Origin: Chloroflexota bacterium
GTDB taxonomy: Bacteria; Chloroflexota; UBA11872; VXOZ01
NCBI GenBank assembly: GCA_964291655.2
Contig: OZ219801.1
Location: 160,001-224,000, forward strand
Direction of reading: 5' to 3'
DNA: 64,000 bases
Positions 5,857 through 30,083 of the stretch are shown here, in pieces. Made by a program: the position numbers and the translations under genes. Each line of letters opens with the position of its first letter. Positions within the stretch are counted from its first letter, which is position 1. The notes under the pieces were generated by a model. It did no database searches and was not told the origin of the DNA. It worked only from the letters and a program-made list of their open reading frames with translations.

Positions 5857-6018
5857 TAACCTTGCGTATACTCAGAGTCTCATAATCAAAGCGCTTCCTC
5901 TGTCAAACTGAAATGCTGGCCGCCGTACACGCACGTGTACCGCGAGCCGGTGATTTGCCTAGGTATGTACCCACAAACGTACCATTGGTATAATGTCTCT
6001 GATATCCCCCGAACACTC

Positions 6019-6963
6019 ATGGACCAGCCAGGGCTTATGCGGAAACTATTCAGCAATCAAGAGCGGCGGTTTGGCTTTTTGCCGGGACGGCAACAGCAGC
6101 CTGAGTTACCTGATGAACTTTGGGAAAAGTGCGCTGGCTGCGGCGAGATGATCTATGCGGCAGAATTCGAGCAGAATGCTCATGTCTGTCCAAAGTGCGA
6201 TCACCATGCCCGCCTGAGTGCTCGCAAGCGTGTCGCCTACCTTCTCGACGAGGGCTCTTTTGCCGAACGCGACAATGGAATGCGCTCGCGTGACATTCTG
6301 GGCTTCGAGCGGCCTGACCGCAGCTACGAACAAAAGCTTGCAGATGAAGCGGACAAAGCCGGCATTCCGGAATCAGTAGTCTACGGTACCGGCACGGTAC
6401 GAGGCGAAGACGTGGTGCTGGCCGTCATTGACACAAATTTCTTCATGGCGACAATGGGCTCGGTGGTCGGCGAGAAGATTACCCGGGCAATCGAGCTCGC
6501 CACGATAACGCGCACGCCGTTGATCATCGTATCGGCATCCGCCGGCGCACGCATGGAAGAAGGCATGTTTTCCCTCATGCAGATGGCTAAGACATCCGCC
6601 GCCTTGACTCGGCTGCACGAGGCGCGCGTACTCTACGTCTCTATCCTTACCGATCCCACGCTTGCGGGTGTTACCGCCAGTTTCGCGACGCTTGCCGATG
6701 TGATTGTCGCCGAGCCACAGGCCACGATAGGCTTTACCGGTCCGCGCCTCATTGAACAGATCACGCACGCCAAGTTGCCGGCAGGGACACACTCGGCAGA
6801 ATTCATGCTCGAGCGCGGCATGGTGGACTGTATTGTGCCGCGGGCAGACCTGCGGCGTACGCTCGCCCGCTTGATAGGCCTATACTCCCACCAGACATCG
6901 GACCCCCGCACCGACGTTGTGCCGCCGACAAACGGCAGCACGCCAGCAGAAACAGTTACCTAG
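6019..6963 (+). CDS. accD: Acetyl-CoA carboxylase carboxyltransferase beta subunit
   Basis: LWEKCAGC...CPKC zinc ribbon, TMGSVVGEKI, SAGARMEEG, LMQMAK, GFTGPRLI. Start is probably ATG 6019 or 6037, not 5935. Confidence 0.96.
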   Translation: MDQPGLMRKLFSNQERRFGFLPGRQQQPELPDELWEKCAGCGEMIYAAEFEQNAHVCPKCDHHARLSARKRVAYLLDEGSFAERDNGMRSRDILGFERPDRSYEQKLADEADKAGIPESVVYGTGTVRGEDVVLAVIDTNFFMATMGSVVGEKITRAIELATITRTPLIIVSASAGARMEEGMFSLMQMAKTSAALTRLHEARVLYVSILTDPTLAGVTASFATLADVIVAEPQATIGFTGPRLIEQITHAKLPAGTHSAEFMLERGMVDCIVPRADLRRTLARLIGLYSHQTSDPRTDVVPPTNGSTPAETVT

Positions 6964-26377: not shown

Positions 26378-27094
26378 CTAGCGCAACGTTACCAGCACCT
26401 CGTTGCGGCGGAACCAGGGAATGGTGAACGGAGGATCATACGTCGCAATTCTCCAATCGCCTTGGTGCTCCAGACCTTGTGCGTGCAGCCAGTATTCCAG
26501 CTTTGCCCGCTGGGTCTCGGCACTTTGGTTCGACAGCCTCCCGTTGAAGCGAATGCTGGCGACCTCGCGCGCTTCAATTTCGCGAATTGTCACGCTACTG
26601 TTGGTGGGGAGGGGAGCCGTCTCGACCGTGTAGCCCGCGGGGAGCACAAACGCCATCGTCCAGGCTTCGATATCTGCTCCAGCCAGCCTCTGTCCGTCCG
26701 CGCTTTCACCGGTGGCTCTCGGCTCCACTAAGACCGGCACCGTCATGGCGAGCTTTTCCGACTTTGCCTGACCGGAAGGTTCCACCAATACCGGCGTGGT
26801 CATGTCAATGTTCTCGCGGCTGCGATTATTGCCCGATATGTACCTGAACAGCGGACTGAAGGAACTATTCGTCGCCCGGTTGAACGACCCGGTAGCAGAA
26901 ATCTCAGCAACCACGTACGGCTCGTACCTGCGAATCTCGATGTTGCCGTCTTTCAATACGACTTCGTGCGCGGGCTCTTCGTACGCGCTGCCAAACAACG
27001 AGCCGAAGACGAAAGACCTGAGGTAGAAGACTCCCGACCCAAGTAAGAGAACGAATACGAGTGCCACTGCCAGTCTCCTGTATCTTGACATCAT
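26378..27094 (-). CDS. SOUL family heme-binding protein
   Basis: YEEP, IEIRRYE, LFRYISGNN, MTTPV/MTVPV, MAFVLP, YDPPFTIPWFRRNEV. Confidence 0.92.
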   Translation of the reverse strand: MMSRYRRLAVALVFVLLLGSGVFYLRSFVFGSLFGSAYEEPAHEVVLKDGNIEIRRYEPYVVAEISATGSFNRATNSSFSPLFRYISGNNRSRENIDMTTPVLVEPSGQAKSEKLAMTVPVLVEPRATGESADGQRLAGADIEAWTMAFVLPAGYTVETAPLPTNSSVTIREIEAREVASIRFNGRLSNQSAETQRAKLEYWLHAQGLEHQGDWRIATYDPPFTIPWFRRNEVLVTLR

Positions 27095-27670
27095 CCGCTC
27101 CTTCTCCAGTCACTTAGTCGCCTCGTTACGTAAATTATATCTACGCAACCTAAGTAGAAGCTAAGTTATCTGCCGGCCACAGTCCTCCCGCGGAGACATT
27201 TACGGGCAATTGAGCAACTCTACCGCCCGAGAGCGCGACTGGAACGGGTGATTTGGTTGACAGCTTGCAGAGACCCGGAATTTCCTTCGTAATCGGCTTC
27301 GCAAAATGTGCATATTCACAAAGCTGGCAATGGTACAAGAGGACCGTCACACAACGTTAGGAGTGTCCACGAATGTTGCGTGAGAGTTCAATCCAAGCTC
27401 CGGCCTGCCTACTTTCAATGAAGCGTTCTAACCCAGAGAGCAACTTGCCCTTCCTCCACGGCGGGGTATAGCATGGTGCTAACGCTTGGGCTTCATGCGC
27501 AGCGGATGCGGCTGCACCGGCAAGAACTCGGCGGGAATGCGGTGAAGTGCTCCAAATTTCAGCCCAATGCAACGCAGGAGAGCAGTTCTCGCGGAGGAAA
27601 ACCCTAAGAGTCAGAGTAGGGAACTGAATCGCCTCATTTAGGGCATTCAGCCCACCGTGACGGGTCAAAA

Positions 27671-27706: not shown

Positions 27707-27838
27707 CGAGTCCTAATCCGACTCAATTCCGCTTGCCTGGCCGATGTATCCAAGATTGTTCAGACTGGTACAAGTCAGTTCCTTACCGCCTTGTGAGAGT
27801 GGCGGCAAACACGATCGAGAGGCAAAGGAGTAATCAAG

Positions 27839-28702
27839 GTGAGCGTAACATTACAGCGACCCGAAGTGGGTATGGAAGCTCCGGACTTCAGTCTGCCGGA
27901 CGTGTACGGCAAACGCTGGTCGTGGAGCCAGTTTCGGGGCAAGAGAGTCCTGTTGTACATGTGGGCCTCGTGGTGAGGCTGCCGCGATCAGTTGCCAGGT
28001 TGGCAACGATTTGCGGAAAAGCACCAGGGCGACAACTTCCAGATGCTCTCTGTAGCCATGGACGGCGGCGGCGTGGAAAAGCCACGCGCGTTCGTGGAAG
28101 AGTCCGGTGTCACGTTTCCCACCTTTGTGGACGCCAGCGGCCTCTTGTTCCGCCTCTTCGGCTTCACGGCGGTGCCGAACGGTGTTTACGTGGATGAAAC
28201 GGGCATCATTCGCTTTCAACTCTTCACGGGCTTTAGCGTTGACCGCAAGGACATTGTGGCGCAGCTTGAGACGCTGCTGGCAACGCCTGCCGGCGACGTA
28301 CCCGCCACGCCGACGGTCGCGCAGCAGTCGTTTGAAGTCGAAGTCATGTTGGAGCAAGCGGCATCCCAAGGCGACGATCCGCACATGCAGCTCGGCCTCG
28401 CGGAGGCCCTGCTGCAAGAGGGCGAGAACGAGCACGCGGCAGAGGCATTTCGGCGGGCGTTTGAGCTAGACGGTGATTCTGCCAATGCCGCCTTTGGTCT
28501 GGGCACCGCGCTGCAACAACTTGGGCAGACTTCCGAGGCGCTCGCCTCATGGCGGCAGGCCTTGCAGATCGAGCCGGATAATTTCATCATTCGCAAGCAG
28601 ATCTGGCGCGTCGAATATCCGGAGAAATTCTACCCTGTCATCGACTATGACTGGCAGAAGGTCAAACTTGCCCAAGAGAAGGCTGCGGAAGGCAGAGCGT
28701 GA
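27839..28702 (+). CDS. Probable selenoprotein: TlpA/peroxiredoxin-like thioredoxin-fold domain (UGC motif) plus TPR repeats, 287 aa
   Basis: AAGGAG RBS, GTG 27839, MSVTLQRPEVGMEAPDFSLPDVYGKRWSWSQFRGKRVLLYMWASW-[TGA 27974-27976]-GCRDQLPGWQ, in frame with ORF 27992..28702; TPR helices at the C-terminus. Confidence 0.85.
27982..28016 (+). promoter_or_regulatory. Bacterial SECIS-like hairpin
   Basis: CCGC GATC a GTTGCCA ggt TGGCAAC GATT t GCGG starts 5 nt after the in-frame TGA; 7-bp perfect upper stem with a G-led apical loop. Confidence 0.75.
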
Positions 28703-28889: not shown

Positions 28890-30083
28890 ATGGCATGGGG
28901 ATTCTTGGATAGATTTGTGCGGCCTAAATGGCTGCTCGACCGCATCTTGCTTGTGGCGGAGCGCGTCGCCGAGCGTGACGAGGAAGAGCTGCCCTCGCTC
29001 CTCATCGACACGCTGCGGGAGCATTTTGGCGCGCAGCATGTTTGCATACACTTCGCTGATCCCTGCATCCTACGCACCTCAGCACGGGAGGCCATGGTTG
29101 CGGCGTGTCCTACTGCGTCCGCCAACGCGACAGATGGTGCCACCGGCGGCGCGGAAGCGCCCTTCTGGCAATTCGCCCTCGCGCATGGGAAGGTTGTCAC
29201 CGCTTCCACCACACCCACAGCCATACAGGATGAGCTCCGCCCGCTCCTTCAGGCCGTCGGTGCACGCGATGGCATTGCAATCCCTCTCATCTACCGGGGC
29301 ACAGTCTACGCCGTCGTCAATCTCTACTTCAAACGCACGGTACCCTCTAAGCTTGCAACTGCGGAAAACGTCATGCGGAGCATCCGTTTGCTCGGGAACC
29401 TCGTGTATAGCGTCCTCCAGCAAGAGTACTACGCGAGCGCGTTGCAGGAGGGTGAAGACGTAGTGCTAGCCCTTGCTCAGGCAATAGCCACAAGGGATGG
29501 CTACGACGCGGGCCACGTGCAACGGGTGTCCACTCTCGCGAGCGAGTTGGGAAGAGCGGTGGGCCTGAGCCACGCTGAGCAGATCGCAGTGTGCAAAGGG
29601 GCAATGCTCCGTGACATTGGGAAGCTCTACGTCCCTGACTACCTCCTCCAAAAGCCCGGCCCGCTCGATGCCGCAGAACACGCGTGCGTACGCGAGCATC
29701 CGGTTACGGGTGCGAATATGCTCTTGGACGCCGGCAGCAGCATGGCGCCGTCCAGGGAGTCGCCGGCCATGGTTGTATCCGCCATCCGCAGTCACCACGA
29801 ACGGCTCGACGGCTCCGGCTACCCGGATGGCCTTACAGGGTCGGACGTGCCGGCGCCGGCCCGCATTGTCGCCATAGTCGACGTTTATGCCGCGTTGACT
29901 GCCGATCGTCCCTATCGGGCCGCATTGCCGCAGCCGCGGGCGGTGCAGGCACTCCAAGAGATGGCCGGACCGGGACTCGATGCCGAGTTGGTGTCGCTCT
30001 TCCTCTCCCGTGGCATTCACACCGCCGTTGCGTCCGGACTGTCAGAACAGCTTGAACCGGCGGCGCCACGCGCTGCCTCGTAG
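28890..30083 (+). CDS. GAF + HD-GYP domain protein with degenerate HD motif
   Basis: GAF-like IAIPLIYRGTVYAVVNLY; GHVQRV, MLRDIGK, LLQKPGPL, HHERLDGSGYPDGL, ARIVAIVDVY, RPYR. Confidence 0.9.
   Translation: MAWGFLDRFVRPKWLLDRILLVAERVAERDEEELPSLLIDTLREHFGAQHVCIHFADPCILRTSAREAMVAACPTASANATDGATGGAEAPFWQFALAHGKVVTASTTPTAIQDELRPLLQAVGARDGIAIPLIYRGTVYAVVNLYFKRTVPSKLATAENVMRSIRLLGNLVYSVLQQEYYASALQEGEDVVLALAQAIATRDGYDAGHVQRVSTLASELGRAVGLSHAEQIAVCKGAMLRDIGKLYVPDYLLQKPGPLDAAEHACVREHPVTGANMLLDAGSSMAPSRESPAMVVSAIRSHHERLDGSGYPDGLTGSDVPAPARIVAIVDVYAALTADRPYRAALPQPRAVQALQEMAGPGLDAELVSLFLSRGIHTAVASGLSEQLEPAAPRAAS

Follow-up and report, generated by a model that had tools for sequence, protein, structure and literature searches.

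Positions 27839-28702 on the forward strand of the window, the 64,000-nucleotide stretch of Chloroflexota bacterium DNA analyzed here (GenBank assembly GCA_964291655.2, contig OZ219801.1, positions 160,001 to 224,000), very probably constitute a single gene encoding a 287-residue selenoprotein in which selenocysteine (Sec46) is inserted at an in-frame UGA. This UGA lies at the attacking-cysteine position of a ResA/TlpA-type thioredoxin fold, and the resulting U46-G-C48 site corresponds to a CxxC motif minus one residue. The gene is a further member of the already listed UGC-containing Prx-like/TlpA-family and not a new kind of selenoprotein. Current annotation ignores its 5' part and labels the remainder a 'TPR repeat' or 'hypothetical' protein, and the databases hold truncated products only. 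The features of the locus are collected in Table 1.

Table 1. Features of the selenoprotein locus, in positions of the window
Feature	Positions	Strand	Basis and remarks
Shine-Dalgarno-like AAGGAG	27825..27830	+	Direct reading; 8-nt spacer before GTG 27839
Complete selenoprotein gene (very probable reading)	27839..28702	+	Direct reading; 287 codons including Sec46, plus terminal TGA stop 28700-28702
Thioredoxin-fold redoxin domain	27866..28216	+	Pfam AhpC-TSA/Redoxin, residues 10-126; structural match residues 5-154
In-frame TGA (Sec46)	27974..27976	+	Occupies the place of the nucleophilic first Cys of CxxC; column is TGA in 136/148 loci
Cys48 (TGC), proposed resolving partner in U-x-C	27980..27982	+	Family-invariant column in alignments
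Lower stem, 5' arm (6 bp, genus-specific)	27982..27987	+	83% of cells paired within genus set
Upper stem, 5' arm GTTGCCA	27991..27997	+	92.7% pairing across 82 sequences; 5-bp core unbroken in 106/107 unique Sec forms
Apical loop GGT	27998..28000	+	21 nt after TGA; starts GG/GU in 107/107 Sec forms
Upper stem, 3' arm TGGCAAC	28001..28007	+	Folding, family alignment
Lower stem, 3' arm (genus-specific)	28011..28016	+	Pairs with 27982-27987
Three TPR repeats, six helices	28325..28615	+	Residues 163-259; Pfam TPR matches; AF2 helices H165-176 through H249-259
Conserved loop (PEKFY..IDY.WQ) and C-terminal capping helix	28616..28699	+	Residues 260-287; AF2 helix 270-286

A preliminary description of the locus, made from the sequence alone, had proposed a ribosome binding site and GTG start, a frame continuing beyond the TGA, and truncation of the product by gene callers, all of which were borne out. 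The AAGGAG element precedes the GTG at 27839, the position at which ATG or GTG is likewise found in relatives' loci, and the frame is open for only 13 codons further upstream. From this start the N-terminus of the 287-codon frame reads ...APDFSLPDVYGKRWSWSQFRGKRVLLYMWASW, followed by TGA as codon 46 and then by GCRDQLPGWQ, after which translation can proceed, over 241 codons in all, to the terminal TGA. Gene calling with table 11 yielded only a 236-aa ORF (27992..28702), and the nearest database proteins are 214-236 aa long, with 74-97% identity over 71-82% of the query, while full-length orthologs with exactly one TGA each were recovered from 17/17 genomes of the genus. Public contigs from three other DNA studies span the TGA and show no difference there among the differences listed, which, together with conservation of the TGA in relatives, answers the concern raised at the outset that the codon might reflect a sequencing error or a nonsense mutation. 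One RNA-library contig runs across both the TGA and the adjacent hairpin, which is not proof of transcription, and 4-6% of sampled words were present in the RNA runs, a figure that is not a measure of expression level.

Read through the TGA, the product contains a redoxin domain that spans the codon, with E values of 2.6e-19 for Pfam AhpC-TSA (residues 10-126) and 2.7e-15 for Redoxin. Foldseek matches reached a TM score on the target of about 0.8, and a VIA search gave Z scores of 15-19.5 to DsbE, ResA, TlpA and CcmG. As had been claimed from the sequence, Sec46 falls on the first CxxC cysteine when superimposed on ResA/TlpA-type structures, and the spacing is U-x-C rather than CxxC, one residue being deleted; Pro113 is invariant and aligns with the active-site-facing proline of 3kcm. 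The protein resembles the extracytoplasmic thiol-disulfide oxidoreductases ResA, TlpA, CcmG (DsbE), StoA and Etrx in fold (Z 16-19.5, rmsd about 2 Å over about 135-140 residues), nucleophile placement and aligned active-site proline. In contrast, these oxidoreductases possess a C-x-x-C motif with cysteine and are membrane-anchored or secreted proteins without TPRs, whereas the protein described here possesses U-x-C with Sec, is leaderless and carries a TPR domain. The peroxidatic motif of peroxiredoxins (Prx/BCP) is P-x-x-x-T/S-x-x-C; unlike these enzymes, the present sequence, L39-Y-M-W-A43-S-W-U46, has neither Pro at -7 nor Thr/Ser at -3.

Alignment of homologs revealed that the TGA within the motif W42-A-S-W-U46-G-C48 is retained over large distances. 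The TGA column is identical in 20/20 relatives' loci, a homolog with one TGA is present in 6/6 genomes of a second family, and TGA was found in 80/80 loci from species-representative genomes (the best 80 of at least 495 confirmed stretches). Among 148 homologous loci overall, 136 have TGA, and the 12 exceptions comprise 3 Cys (TGC), 8 Glu and 1 Ala codons, all belonging to one acidobacterial clade in a FastTree tree that was built without bootstrap and has several long branches flagged. The Cys/TGA pairing that the preliminary description had put forward as a check is therefore found at this column, both in loci L142, L152 and L153 and in the database proteins P0024 and P0312, which have Cys at the Sec position. 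In some low-GC database homologs (P0037, P0069, P0109) a W is printed at the Sec column, probably a misread TGA. A search of a 401-genome phylum sample with P0037 did not find the DNA behind these forms; its 11 matches, at 34-44% identity, were all TGA forms (11/11). The middle residue of the motif varies among homologs (G, R, A, V, M, T, D, L, Q, I), and the family motif is therefore U-x-C.

The hairpin reported to follow the TGA, a GTTGCCA/TGGCAAC stem with a GGT loop, is present at 27991-28007. Folding of a 66-nt segment gave -31.9 kcal/mol (z = -3.47), a stability attained by 0/200 shuffles. The bacterial SECIS model set out in the Fig. 2 legend of PMC13188914 specifies a loop of 3-9 nt with a G within its first two positions, a stem of 4-16 bp, a UGA-to-loop distance of 16-37 nt and an MFE of at most -7.5 kcal/mol; with a 3-nt GGU loop, a 7-bp stem, a distance of 21 nt and -24.7 kcal/mol from the UGA onward, the hairpin agrees with the model on every count, and its likeness to SECIS elements, suspected earlier, stands. 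An Rfam scan of 27850-28150 with E up to 1 returned no match. The lower stem was considered as a family feature and rejected, being genus-specific and absent from the family-wide consensus.

Constraint at synonymous sites reveals that the hairpin is under RNA-level selection in Sec forms, and it decays in non-Sec relatives. The Leu codon of the stem is xTG in 84/84 unique sequences, compared with 939/1905 (49%) elsewhere in the same ORFs, and CCA encodes the stem Pro in 44/84 (52%) compared with 110/1096 (10%). The Leu1:Gln3 pair covaries, as the preliminary description had suggested examining, with C-G in 63, U-A in 12, U.G in 9 and C.A in 0 of the 84 sequences, and in the family-wide set 0/500 shuffles matched the observed percentage paired, the double-change cells or the covariation score; in the close genus set (20 loci) covariation was not significant, 74/500 shuffles reaching the score. 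Over 82 sequences, four of the seven stem pairs are invariant, and pairing is lost at the outermost position in 19 and at the loop-closing position in 23. Of the unique Sec forms, 107/107 open the loop with GG or GU and 106/107 retain an unbroken core stem (the single mismatched one being L181), the corresponding counts among non-Sec forms being 2/10 and 7/10; the median hairpin energy is -9.6 kcal/mol in the former and -4.6 kcal/mol in the latter. The non-Sec controls form a single clade representing only about 2-3 events, and P values of the Sec versus non-Sec contrast therefore overstate independence. The loop codon specifies Gly or Val (GGN/GUN) in 107/107 Sec forms, with Ala, Thr and Ser codons appearing after Sec loss; in the Cys forms L152 and L153, for example, the peptide has become QLAAW and the Leu codons are CTA and CTC. 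In the Sec forms L140 and L141 Gln is replaced by Arg with pairing preserved. The Pro and Gly/Val of the peptide overlapping the hairpin appear to be kept for the RNA and not for the protein, drifting once Sec is replaced. For a bacterial SECIS element the hairpin varies unusually little across four phyla, a uniformity that stems from its overlap with a conserved peptide.

The host genome encodes the Sec machinery whose presence the preliminary description had made a test of its proposal, with selA (562.1 bits, cut-off 268), selB (356.8 bits, cut-off 242), selD (383.3 bits, cut-off 125) and a tRNA-Sec (67.1 bits, cut-off 47), the last identified by ARAGORN as tRNA-SeC with anticodon tca (UCA). 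SelB was found in 8/8 carriers versus 111/151 genomes of the phylum sample overall, a co-occurrence that is uninformative.

Other accounts of the TGA have to be weighed against this body of evidence. Were TGA46 a true stop, either the locus would have to be explained by pseudogene formation, a nonsense mutation or an error of sequencing, or its sole product would be the 'TPR protein' of 214-236 aa encoded downstream, as the single table 11 call, the lengths of the genus database entries and the use of TGA as a normal stop in the host genome would allow. However, the Pfam redoxin domain crosses the TGA, and a downstream start would halve the fold; conservation across phyla extends to the 45 codons before the TGA, among which G34, W42 and W45 are invariant in the alignments; the alternatives to TGA at its column are sense codons; and the further studies' contigs list no change at the codon. 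We assign this account next to no probability. That near-cognate decoding or a reassigned code instead places Trp, Cys or some other residue at the UGA is very unlikely: although the W printed in P0037, P0069 and P0109 could be taken in its favor, TGA terminates 10/29 long ORFs in the window as well as the selenoprotein gene itself, the genome has the full Sec machinery, and the TGA is accompanied by an RNA-selected SECIS that decays where the codon is Cys, Glu or Ala, at a column that pairs with Cys like those of other redox selenoproteins.

A further alternative accepts the frame and questions the hairpin, which might be a mere by-product of the conserved peptide QLP(G/V)WQ, the Sec signal, if any, lying elsewhere. 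Most stem bases are indeed dictated by Leu, Pro, Trp and Gln, and both the stem pairs that never vary and the insignificant covariation of the close set are in keeping with such an origin, but the constraint on free synonymous sites (Leu xTG, Pro CCA, absence of C.A), the restriction of the loop residue to Gly/Val until Sec is lost, and the preserved pairing on Gln to Arg replacement all speak against it, and we regard it as extremely unlikely. The conserved TGA, the Sec machinery and the SECIS under RNA-level selection support the 287-aa Sec enzyme as originally proposed.

Selenoproteins designated 'Prx-like (UGC-containing)' were listed in the 2008 GOS paper and then in later reviews, a precedent that the preliminary description had correctly noted; the 2008 GOS paper describes the family as commoner in non-marine samples. 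The present gene shares with the UGC-containing Prx-like/TlpA-family, as characterized in the passages devoted to it, the pfam00578/cd02966 thioredoxin fold, a single TGA giving one Sec in U-G-C, prediction by TGA/Cys pairing and a Sec-competent host. Those passages do not mention a TPR domain, a C-terminal signature, a cytoplasmic/exported split or a function, and the supplements may list more. Peng et al. 2016 do not use the string 'UGC' in their main text, and 'WAxxUGC' used as a literature search term retrieved nothing. The best NCBIfam match is NF041054, 'WAxxUGC_long' (ResA-like WAxxUGC motif-containing protein, an equivalog of 354 positions with a cut-off of 300 bits), which the protein matches at 162.4 bits, below the cut-off, with the redoxin part aligned to profile positions 82-194 and the last TPR plus signature to 275-324. 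Like NF041054 the protein has the WAxxUGC motif (W42-A-S-W-U-G-C48); unlike it, there is no match to the N-terminal region at profile positions 1-81. Among 10 diverse family members none reached the cut-off (0/10; 116-176 bits), which indicates that the model stands for a narrower, 'long' clade. In all, the family accounts for no fewer than 495 confirmed stretches among species-representative genomes, and its specific tail occurs in at least 1024 protein clusters. For the host genome the finding corrects the annotation to one 287-residue selenoenzyme, and the same annotation error recurs across a large family whose sole curated model misses members. The known mechanism of Sec insertion is unchanged by the finding; the evolution of bacterial SECIS elements can be followed in the family as a clean natural experiment, its hairpin being overlaid on a conserved peptide.

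The C-terminal half is modeled as three TPRs plus a capping helix, in agreement with the TPR module first noted in the sequence: Pfam TPR models match residues 182-248, AF2 predicts the corresponding helices, and the model superimposes on HOP TPR1 (residues 163-258, Z 14.0, rmsd 1.7, 96 aligned) and on RPAP3 TPR2 (residues 163-286, Z 14.6), a Z of about 14 being barely above chance for helical repeats. The last TPR helix carries a family-invariant N-x-x-x-R-K-Q-x-W signature and the tail invariant residues P261, F264, W272 and Q273, so that N-x-x-x-RKQxW ... PExF ... WQ is invariant across four phyla; among the best 120 of 1024 matches the tail is confined to the UGC-family architecture. CnoX/YbbN is a cytoplasmic 'chaperedoxin' in which a thioredoxin-fold redox domain is combined with TPRs. 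It is absent among the 50 structural matches listed, a list filled by single-domain matches.

In the proposed mechanism, SelB with Sec-tRNA-Sec would read the hairpin, with GG at the start of its loop 21 nt from the UGA, and insert Sec. The selenolate of Sec46 would then attack a substrate disulfide or sulfenate, and Cys48 would resolve the mixed Se-S bond by closing a selenenylsulfide ring of 11 members, to be re-reduced by a thiol reductant of the cell. The three-TPR domain and capping helix might recruit a protein or peptide partner, and the 'partner targeting' attributed to the TPR domain from the outset may thus be its role. A more speculative reading, which we consider rather unlikely, is that these proteins form a distinct, almost obligately Sec-dependent class, in which a contracted U-x-C site and a three-TPR clamp serve one conserved client in cytoplasm or periplasm, for example as a selenium-based 'chaperedoxin' or disulfide isomerase. 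In that case the Glu/Ala forms of the acidobacterial clade would be redox-dead derivatives retaining client binding.

Genomic context gave no conserved operon partners, the most widespread neighbor cluster occurring in 9/70 loci and tracking lineage. The recurrent neighbors are unrelated enzymes (gluconolactonase-like, aconitase C-terminal, SDR, amidohydrolase and epoxide hydrolase), and the SOUL, GAF-HD and MFS neighbors within the window offer no functional lead. No hydrophobic leader or signal peptide was found in the 45 residues preceding Sec, and there is no room for one upstream; the Chloroflexota protein therefore probably acts in the cytoplasm. Homologs from Acidobacteriota, Armatimonadota and Poribacteria have predicted signal peptides and are presumably exported. 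The host genome encodes two further TlpA-like Sec candidates, both with lipoprotein leaders.

The preliminary description read window positions 27839..28702 as a hidden selenoprotein, and this call was correct: the gene encodes a selenoprotein that is genuine but mis-annotated and belongs to an already listed family. The ribosome-binding site, the GTG start, the TGA at codon 46 and the open frame beyond it all lie where they had been proposed (see table). The anticipated thioredoxin-fold N-terminus is matched by the Pfam models AhpC-TSA (E 2.6e-19) and Redoxin (2.7e-15) on residues 10-126, spanning the TGA, and the TPR module by several TPR models on residues 182-248 of the 287-codon product. 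Under translation table 11 the sole long ORF in the gene's frame is 27992..28702 (236 aa), and the database proteins of the genus, at 214-236 aa, are post-TGA truncations, just as gene callers had been expected to produce. The gene is single-copy in its own genome.

Features of the selenoprotein gene and its surroundings (window coordinates)
Feature	Position	Strand	Remark
SOUL heme-binding-family protein	26378-27094	-	neighbour
103-aa ORF, no Pfam match	27357-27668	-	neighbour
Shine-Dalgarno-like AAGGAG	27825-27830	+	8 nt spacer before GTG 27839
Start codon GTG	27839	+	direct reading
Frame N-terminus ...APDFSLPDVYGKRWSWSQFRGKRVLLYMWASW	up to TGA codon 46	+	direct translation
In-frame TGA, codon 46	27974-27976	+	GCRDQLPGWQ directly after
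Lower 6-bp stem	27982-87 with 28011-16	+	fold; genus-specific
Upper hairpin GTTGCCA/GGT/TGGCAAC	27991-28007	+	direct reading
Terminal TGA	28700-28702	+	closes 241 codons counted from after codon 46
GAF plus HD_5 (HD-GYP-like) protein	28890-30083	+	neighbour, 187 nt downstream on the gene's strand

The full Sec-machinery set was sought in the own assembly (3.47 Mb, 2 contigs), and selA (562.1 bits, cut-off 268), selB (356.8, cut-off 242), selD (383.3, cut-off 125) and tRNA-Sec (67.1, cut-off 47; tRNA-SeC with anticodon tca according to ARAGORN) all scored above their cut-offs. Of the window's 29 ORFs with 300 aa or more, 10 end in TGA, as does the studied gene itself; TGA thus keeps its usual stop meaning, and the recoding has to be a local event. 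The selD match (locus L013; contig 2, 2457313-2458242, minus strand) contains one in-frame TGA, and selenophosphate synthetase here is probably itself a selenoprotein. In the Chloroflexota sample, SelB scored above threshold in 111 of 151 genomes, a tally that includes the unpublished G075 and G172, and Sec use is thus widespread in the phylum.

Among 41 related genomes, a full-length ortholog with exactly one TGA (74-100% identity) occurs in 17/17 genomes of the genus, the own genome included, and a 44-48% homolog with one TGA in 6/6 genomes of a second family; the TGA column is shared in 20/20 loci, with the motifs WASW*GC, *RC or *AC. Scanning prokaryotes with a single genome for each species yielded at least 599 pattern matches, at least 495 of them confirmed relatives, of which the best 80 belong to Chloroflexota (Dehalococcoidia, Chloroflexia, Thermomicrobiales), Acidobacteriota, Armatimonadota and Poribacteria and carry TGA in 80/80 cases under a regular expression open to any residue at that column. 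Because some genus genomes were reached by both searches, the loci are not all independent, and unique sequences were therefore counted in the hairpin tests. Distribution across the phylum is patchy, the family being present in 8 of 151 genomes and 4 of 97 genera of an even sample (seven with one TGA, one cut by a contig end); a 401-genome sample held it in 11 genomes, with TGA in all 11. In a Dehalococcoidia genome (locus L115), a partial second copy of the gene's 3' half (about 5990-6430, plus strand; GGFDIRR... to ...DVDYDWQ) lies downstream of the intact gene, at a distance of about 2.5 kb, and looks like a duplicated fragment.

Full-length database entries include two with Cys at the Sec column (P0024, WASWCTC; P0312); another protein has Glu there (P0319), and three are printed with W (P0037, P0069, P0109), presumably because a gene caller with a different code translated TGA as Trp. 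A metagenome search with the Cys form as query gave 42 loci. Across the 148 of 150 pooled loci that span the active site, the codon is TGA in 136, TGC in 3, GAA/GAG (Glu) in 8 and GCA (Ala) in 1, so that the suggested check for Cys/TGA pairing among homologs came out positive. In a FastTree phylogeny without bootstrap, all non-Sec forms fall into one 14-row clade (support 100) with three Sec forms of Acidobacteria gp11, corresponding to about two to three events, and on the same tree Sec is the family's normal state. One acidobacterial clade (L144-L151, L157, P0319) has Glu (WASWE[NSL]C) or Ala (WASWALC) at the column; its members keep Cys48, the TPRs and the tail, and may be redox-altered or redox-dead derivatives.

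The perfect stem and GGT loop noted soon after the TGA are present, and a 66-nt window holding both stems folds at -31.9 kcal/mol (z-score -3.47, 0/200 shuffles as stable). A 2026 review (PMC13188914, Fig. 2 legend) describes the consensus bacterial SECIS as having 3-9 nt in the loop, 4-16 bp in the stem, G at both of the opening loop positions and 16-37 nt between UGA and loop, with an MFE of at most -7.5 kcal/mol; with a 3-nt loop (GGU), a 7-bp stem, GG, 21 nt and -24.7 kcal/mol, the proposed SECIS-like hairpin lies within every range. Rfam holds no matching family for it.

Plain conservation proves little here, because the stem is written over the codons for Q-L-P-(G/V)-W-Q and could be a shadow of the peptide; four of the seven stem pairs are invariant in 82 unique sequences, and in the close locus set alone covariation was not significant (74/500 shuffles reach the score). 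We therefore turn to synonymous sites in 84 unique 60-mers from 100 loci, with the other codons of the same ORFs as background. The stem Leu codon is CTG or TTG in 84/84 sequences versus 939/1905 Leu codons elsewhere (binomial 1.6e-26), and for the stem Pro the codon CCA, giving one more A-U pair, is used in 44/84 versus 110/1096. Leu base 1 and Gln base 3 combine as C-G 63, U-A 12, U.G 9 and C.A 0 times (Fisher 2.6e-9). The binomial and Fisher tests, like the covariation test, ignore relatedness. At the level of sequence, these synonymous sites settle the question in favour of a SECIS. In the 82-sequence set the 7-bp helix is 92.7% paired, and 0/500 shuffles attain the observed pairing, the 14 double-change cells or the covariation score, which answers the call for a covariation test; the RNAalifold consensus retains a 5-bp core. 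The outer pair is broken in 19/82 and the loop-closing pair in 23/82 sequences.

The non-Sec forms supply a natural control. Among unique 48-mers (107 Sec, 10 non-Sec), the 5-bp core is intact in 106/107 Sec and 7/10 non-Sec forms, and the loop starts with GG or GU in 107/107 versus 2/10 (the others being seven GC and one AC). The 21-nt hairpin window has a median energy of -9.6 versus -4.6 kcal/mol (Mann-Whitney P 1.6e-7, the non-Sec forms being one clade and about two to three events). The loop-start GG/GU demanded by the consensus model is thus tied to the presence of TGA. Individual cases include L142, the most recent Cys form, in which the hairpin is still there; L152 and L153, with peptide QLAAW and Leu codons CTA and CTC; L157 (QLSAW) and P0312 (QLPSW); and the Sec forms L140 and L141, in which a Gln to Arg change turns U-A into U.G. 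From this contrast and these cases, the peptide's Pro and Gly/Val appear to be held by the RNA.

A sequence search of solved structures returned ResA, StoA, TlpA, DsbE and Etrx-type proteins. In the alignments to such structures, as with 3kcm (WASWCg.CR against WATWCppCR), Sec takes the place of the first CxxC Cys and one residue is deleted, in agreement with the attacking-Cys position and U-x-C spacing first described. An AlphaFold2 model (44-sequence alignment; mean pLDDT 94.5, pTM 0.79) places the predicted N-terminal domain (residues 5-154) close to DsbE, ResA, TlpA and CcmG (Z 16-19.5; Foldseek TM on target about 0.8). The modelled six helices of residues 163-259 resemble three-TPR domains, matching HOP TPR1 (Z 14.0, rmsd 1.7, 96 aligned), and residues 163-286 match RPAP3 TPR2 (Z 14.6), values that barely exceed chance level for helical repeats; no solved structure chain spans both the redoxin and TPR halves. 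Family-invariant residues lie on the last TPR helix (N248, K253, Q254, W256) and on the next loop and the start of capping helix 270-286 (P261, F264, W272, Q273). A tail-only profile matched at least 1024 clusters at E up to 0.001 (8000 candidates scored). The best 120 are 109-298 aa long and have no domains besides TPR and/or AhpC/Redoxin; among these, the tail is confined to this family's architecture. Chloroflexia, Thermomicrobiales and 'f5' forms (L050-L052, L079, L082, L088, L089, L092, L095, L106, L112, L118, L120, L130, L139) carry an additional C-terminal C-G-P-(D/A)-G-C-P motif beyond the capping helix, absent from the window protein and a possible further redox or metal site.

UGC-motif Prx-like selenoproteins had indeed been listed before. 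For 'Prx-like (UGC-containing)' (motif UGC, pfam00578) the 2008 GOS paper counts 46 Sec sequences and 855 Cys homologs, with a higher abundance in non-marine samples; the 2022 review sets it apart as a separate subfamily and calls most such functions unclear. The window protein scores 162.4 bits against NCBIfam NF041054 'WAxxUGC_long', below the cut-off of 300 and without profile positions 1-81; 0/10 diverse family members reach that cut-off, and the string 'WAxxUGC' does not occur in the literature searched. The available parts of the family literature contain no description of the TPR domain, signature tail, compartment split or Glu forms, which supplements may hold. To the known family our analysis adds the scale of mis-annotation, a dual-coded SECIS with a natural control and an apparent cytoplasmic/exported split.

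Local recoding signals and machinery are present, Sec occupies the nucleophile position with Cys48 two residues further along, and the protein has a TPR domain. Insertion of Sec at the UGA would depend on SelB. The selenolate would attack a disulfide or sulfenate of a client captured by the TPR clamp, Cys48 would resolve the adduct to an 11-membered Se-S ring, and a cellular thiol system would re-reduce it. A C-x-C disulfide carries more strain than a C-x-x-C disulfide and favours exchange or isomerase chemistry; Sec would keep a C-x-C-like site fast. We give thiol-disulfide exchange on a TPR-bound protein client roughly an even chance; a peroxidase is the less probable function, and the Prx motif (P-x-x-x-T/S-x-x-C) is absent from the translated sequence.

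The Chloroflexota forms have about 45 residues ahead of Sec, without a hydrophobic stretch, and upstream of the window GTG the frame is open for only 13 further codons; signal peptides are clear in the forms from Acidobacteriota, Armatimonadota and Poribacteria. On contig 2 (about 821.3-823.0 kb; L032, about 1240-2994) lie two divergently placed paralogs for TlpA-like proteins. Their leader is of the lipoprotein type (...LAACGGGS) and their in-frame TGA falls within FWTYT-U-P-V-C, of canonical U-x-x-C spacing; they are probably further exported selenoproteins. Since these two Sec candidates of the same genome have leaders, the missing leader is meaningful, and the window copy is most likely cytoplasmic. 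None of its neighbours, the SOUL protein, the 103-aa ORF and the GAF plus HD_5 protein included, is conserved beside the gene in other lineages.

Four public runs hold the whole stretch and, as possible sources of the assembly, were left out as support. Further runs, from about eleven studies and in several cases labelled sponge metagenome, contain 17-31% of the sampled words. Three of these DNA studies have contigs, 95-99% alike, that extend over 27974-27976, and none of the 40 difference rows covered, of 52 in all, falls there; an 84-nt contig from a metatranscriptome library, by itself no proof of transcription, spans 27941-28024. The alike relatives in several independent sponge-labelled studies, along with the Poribacteria homolog (L105), hint at a sponge-associated habitat.
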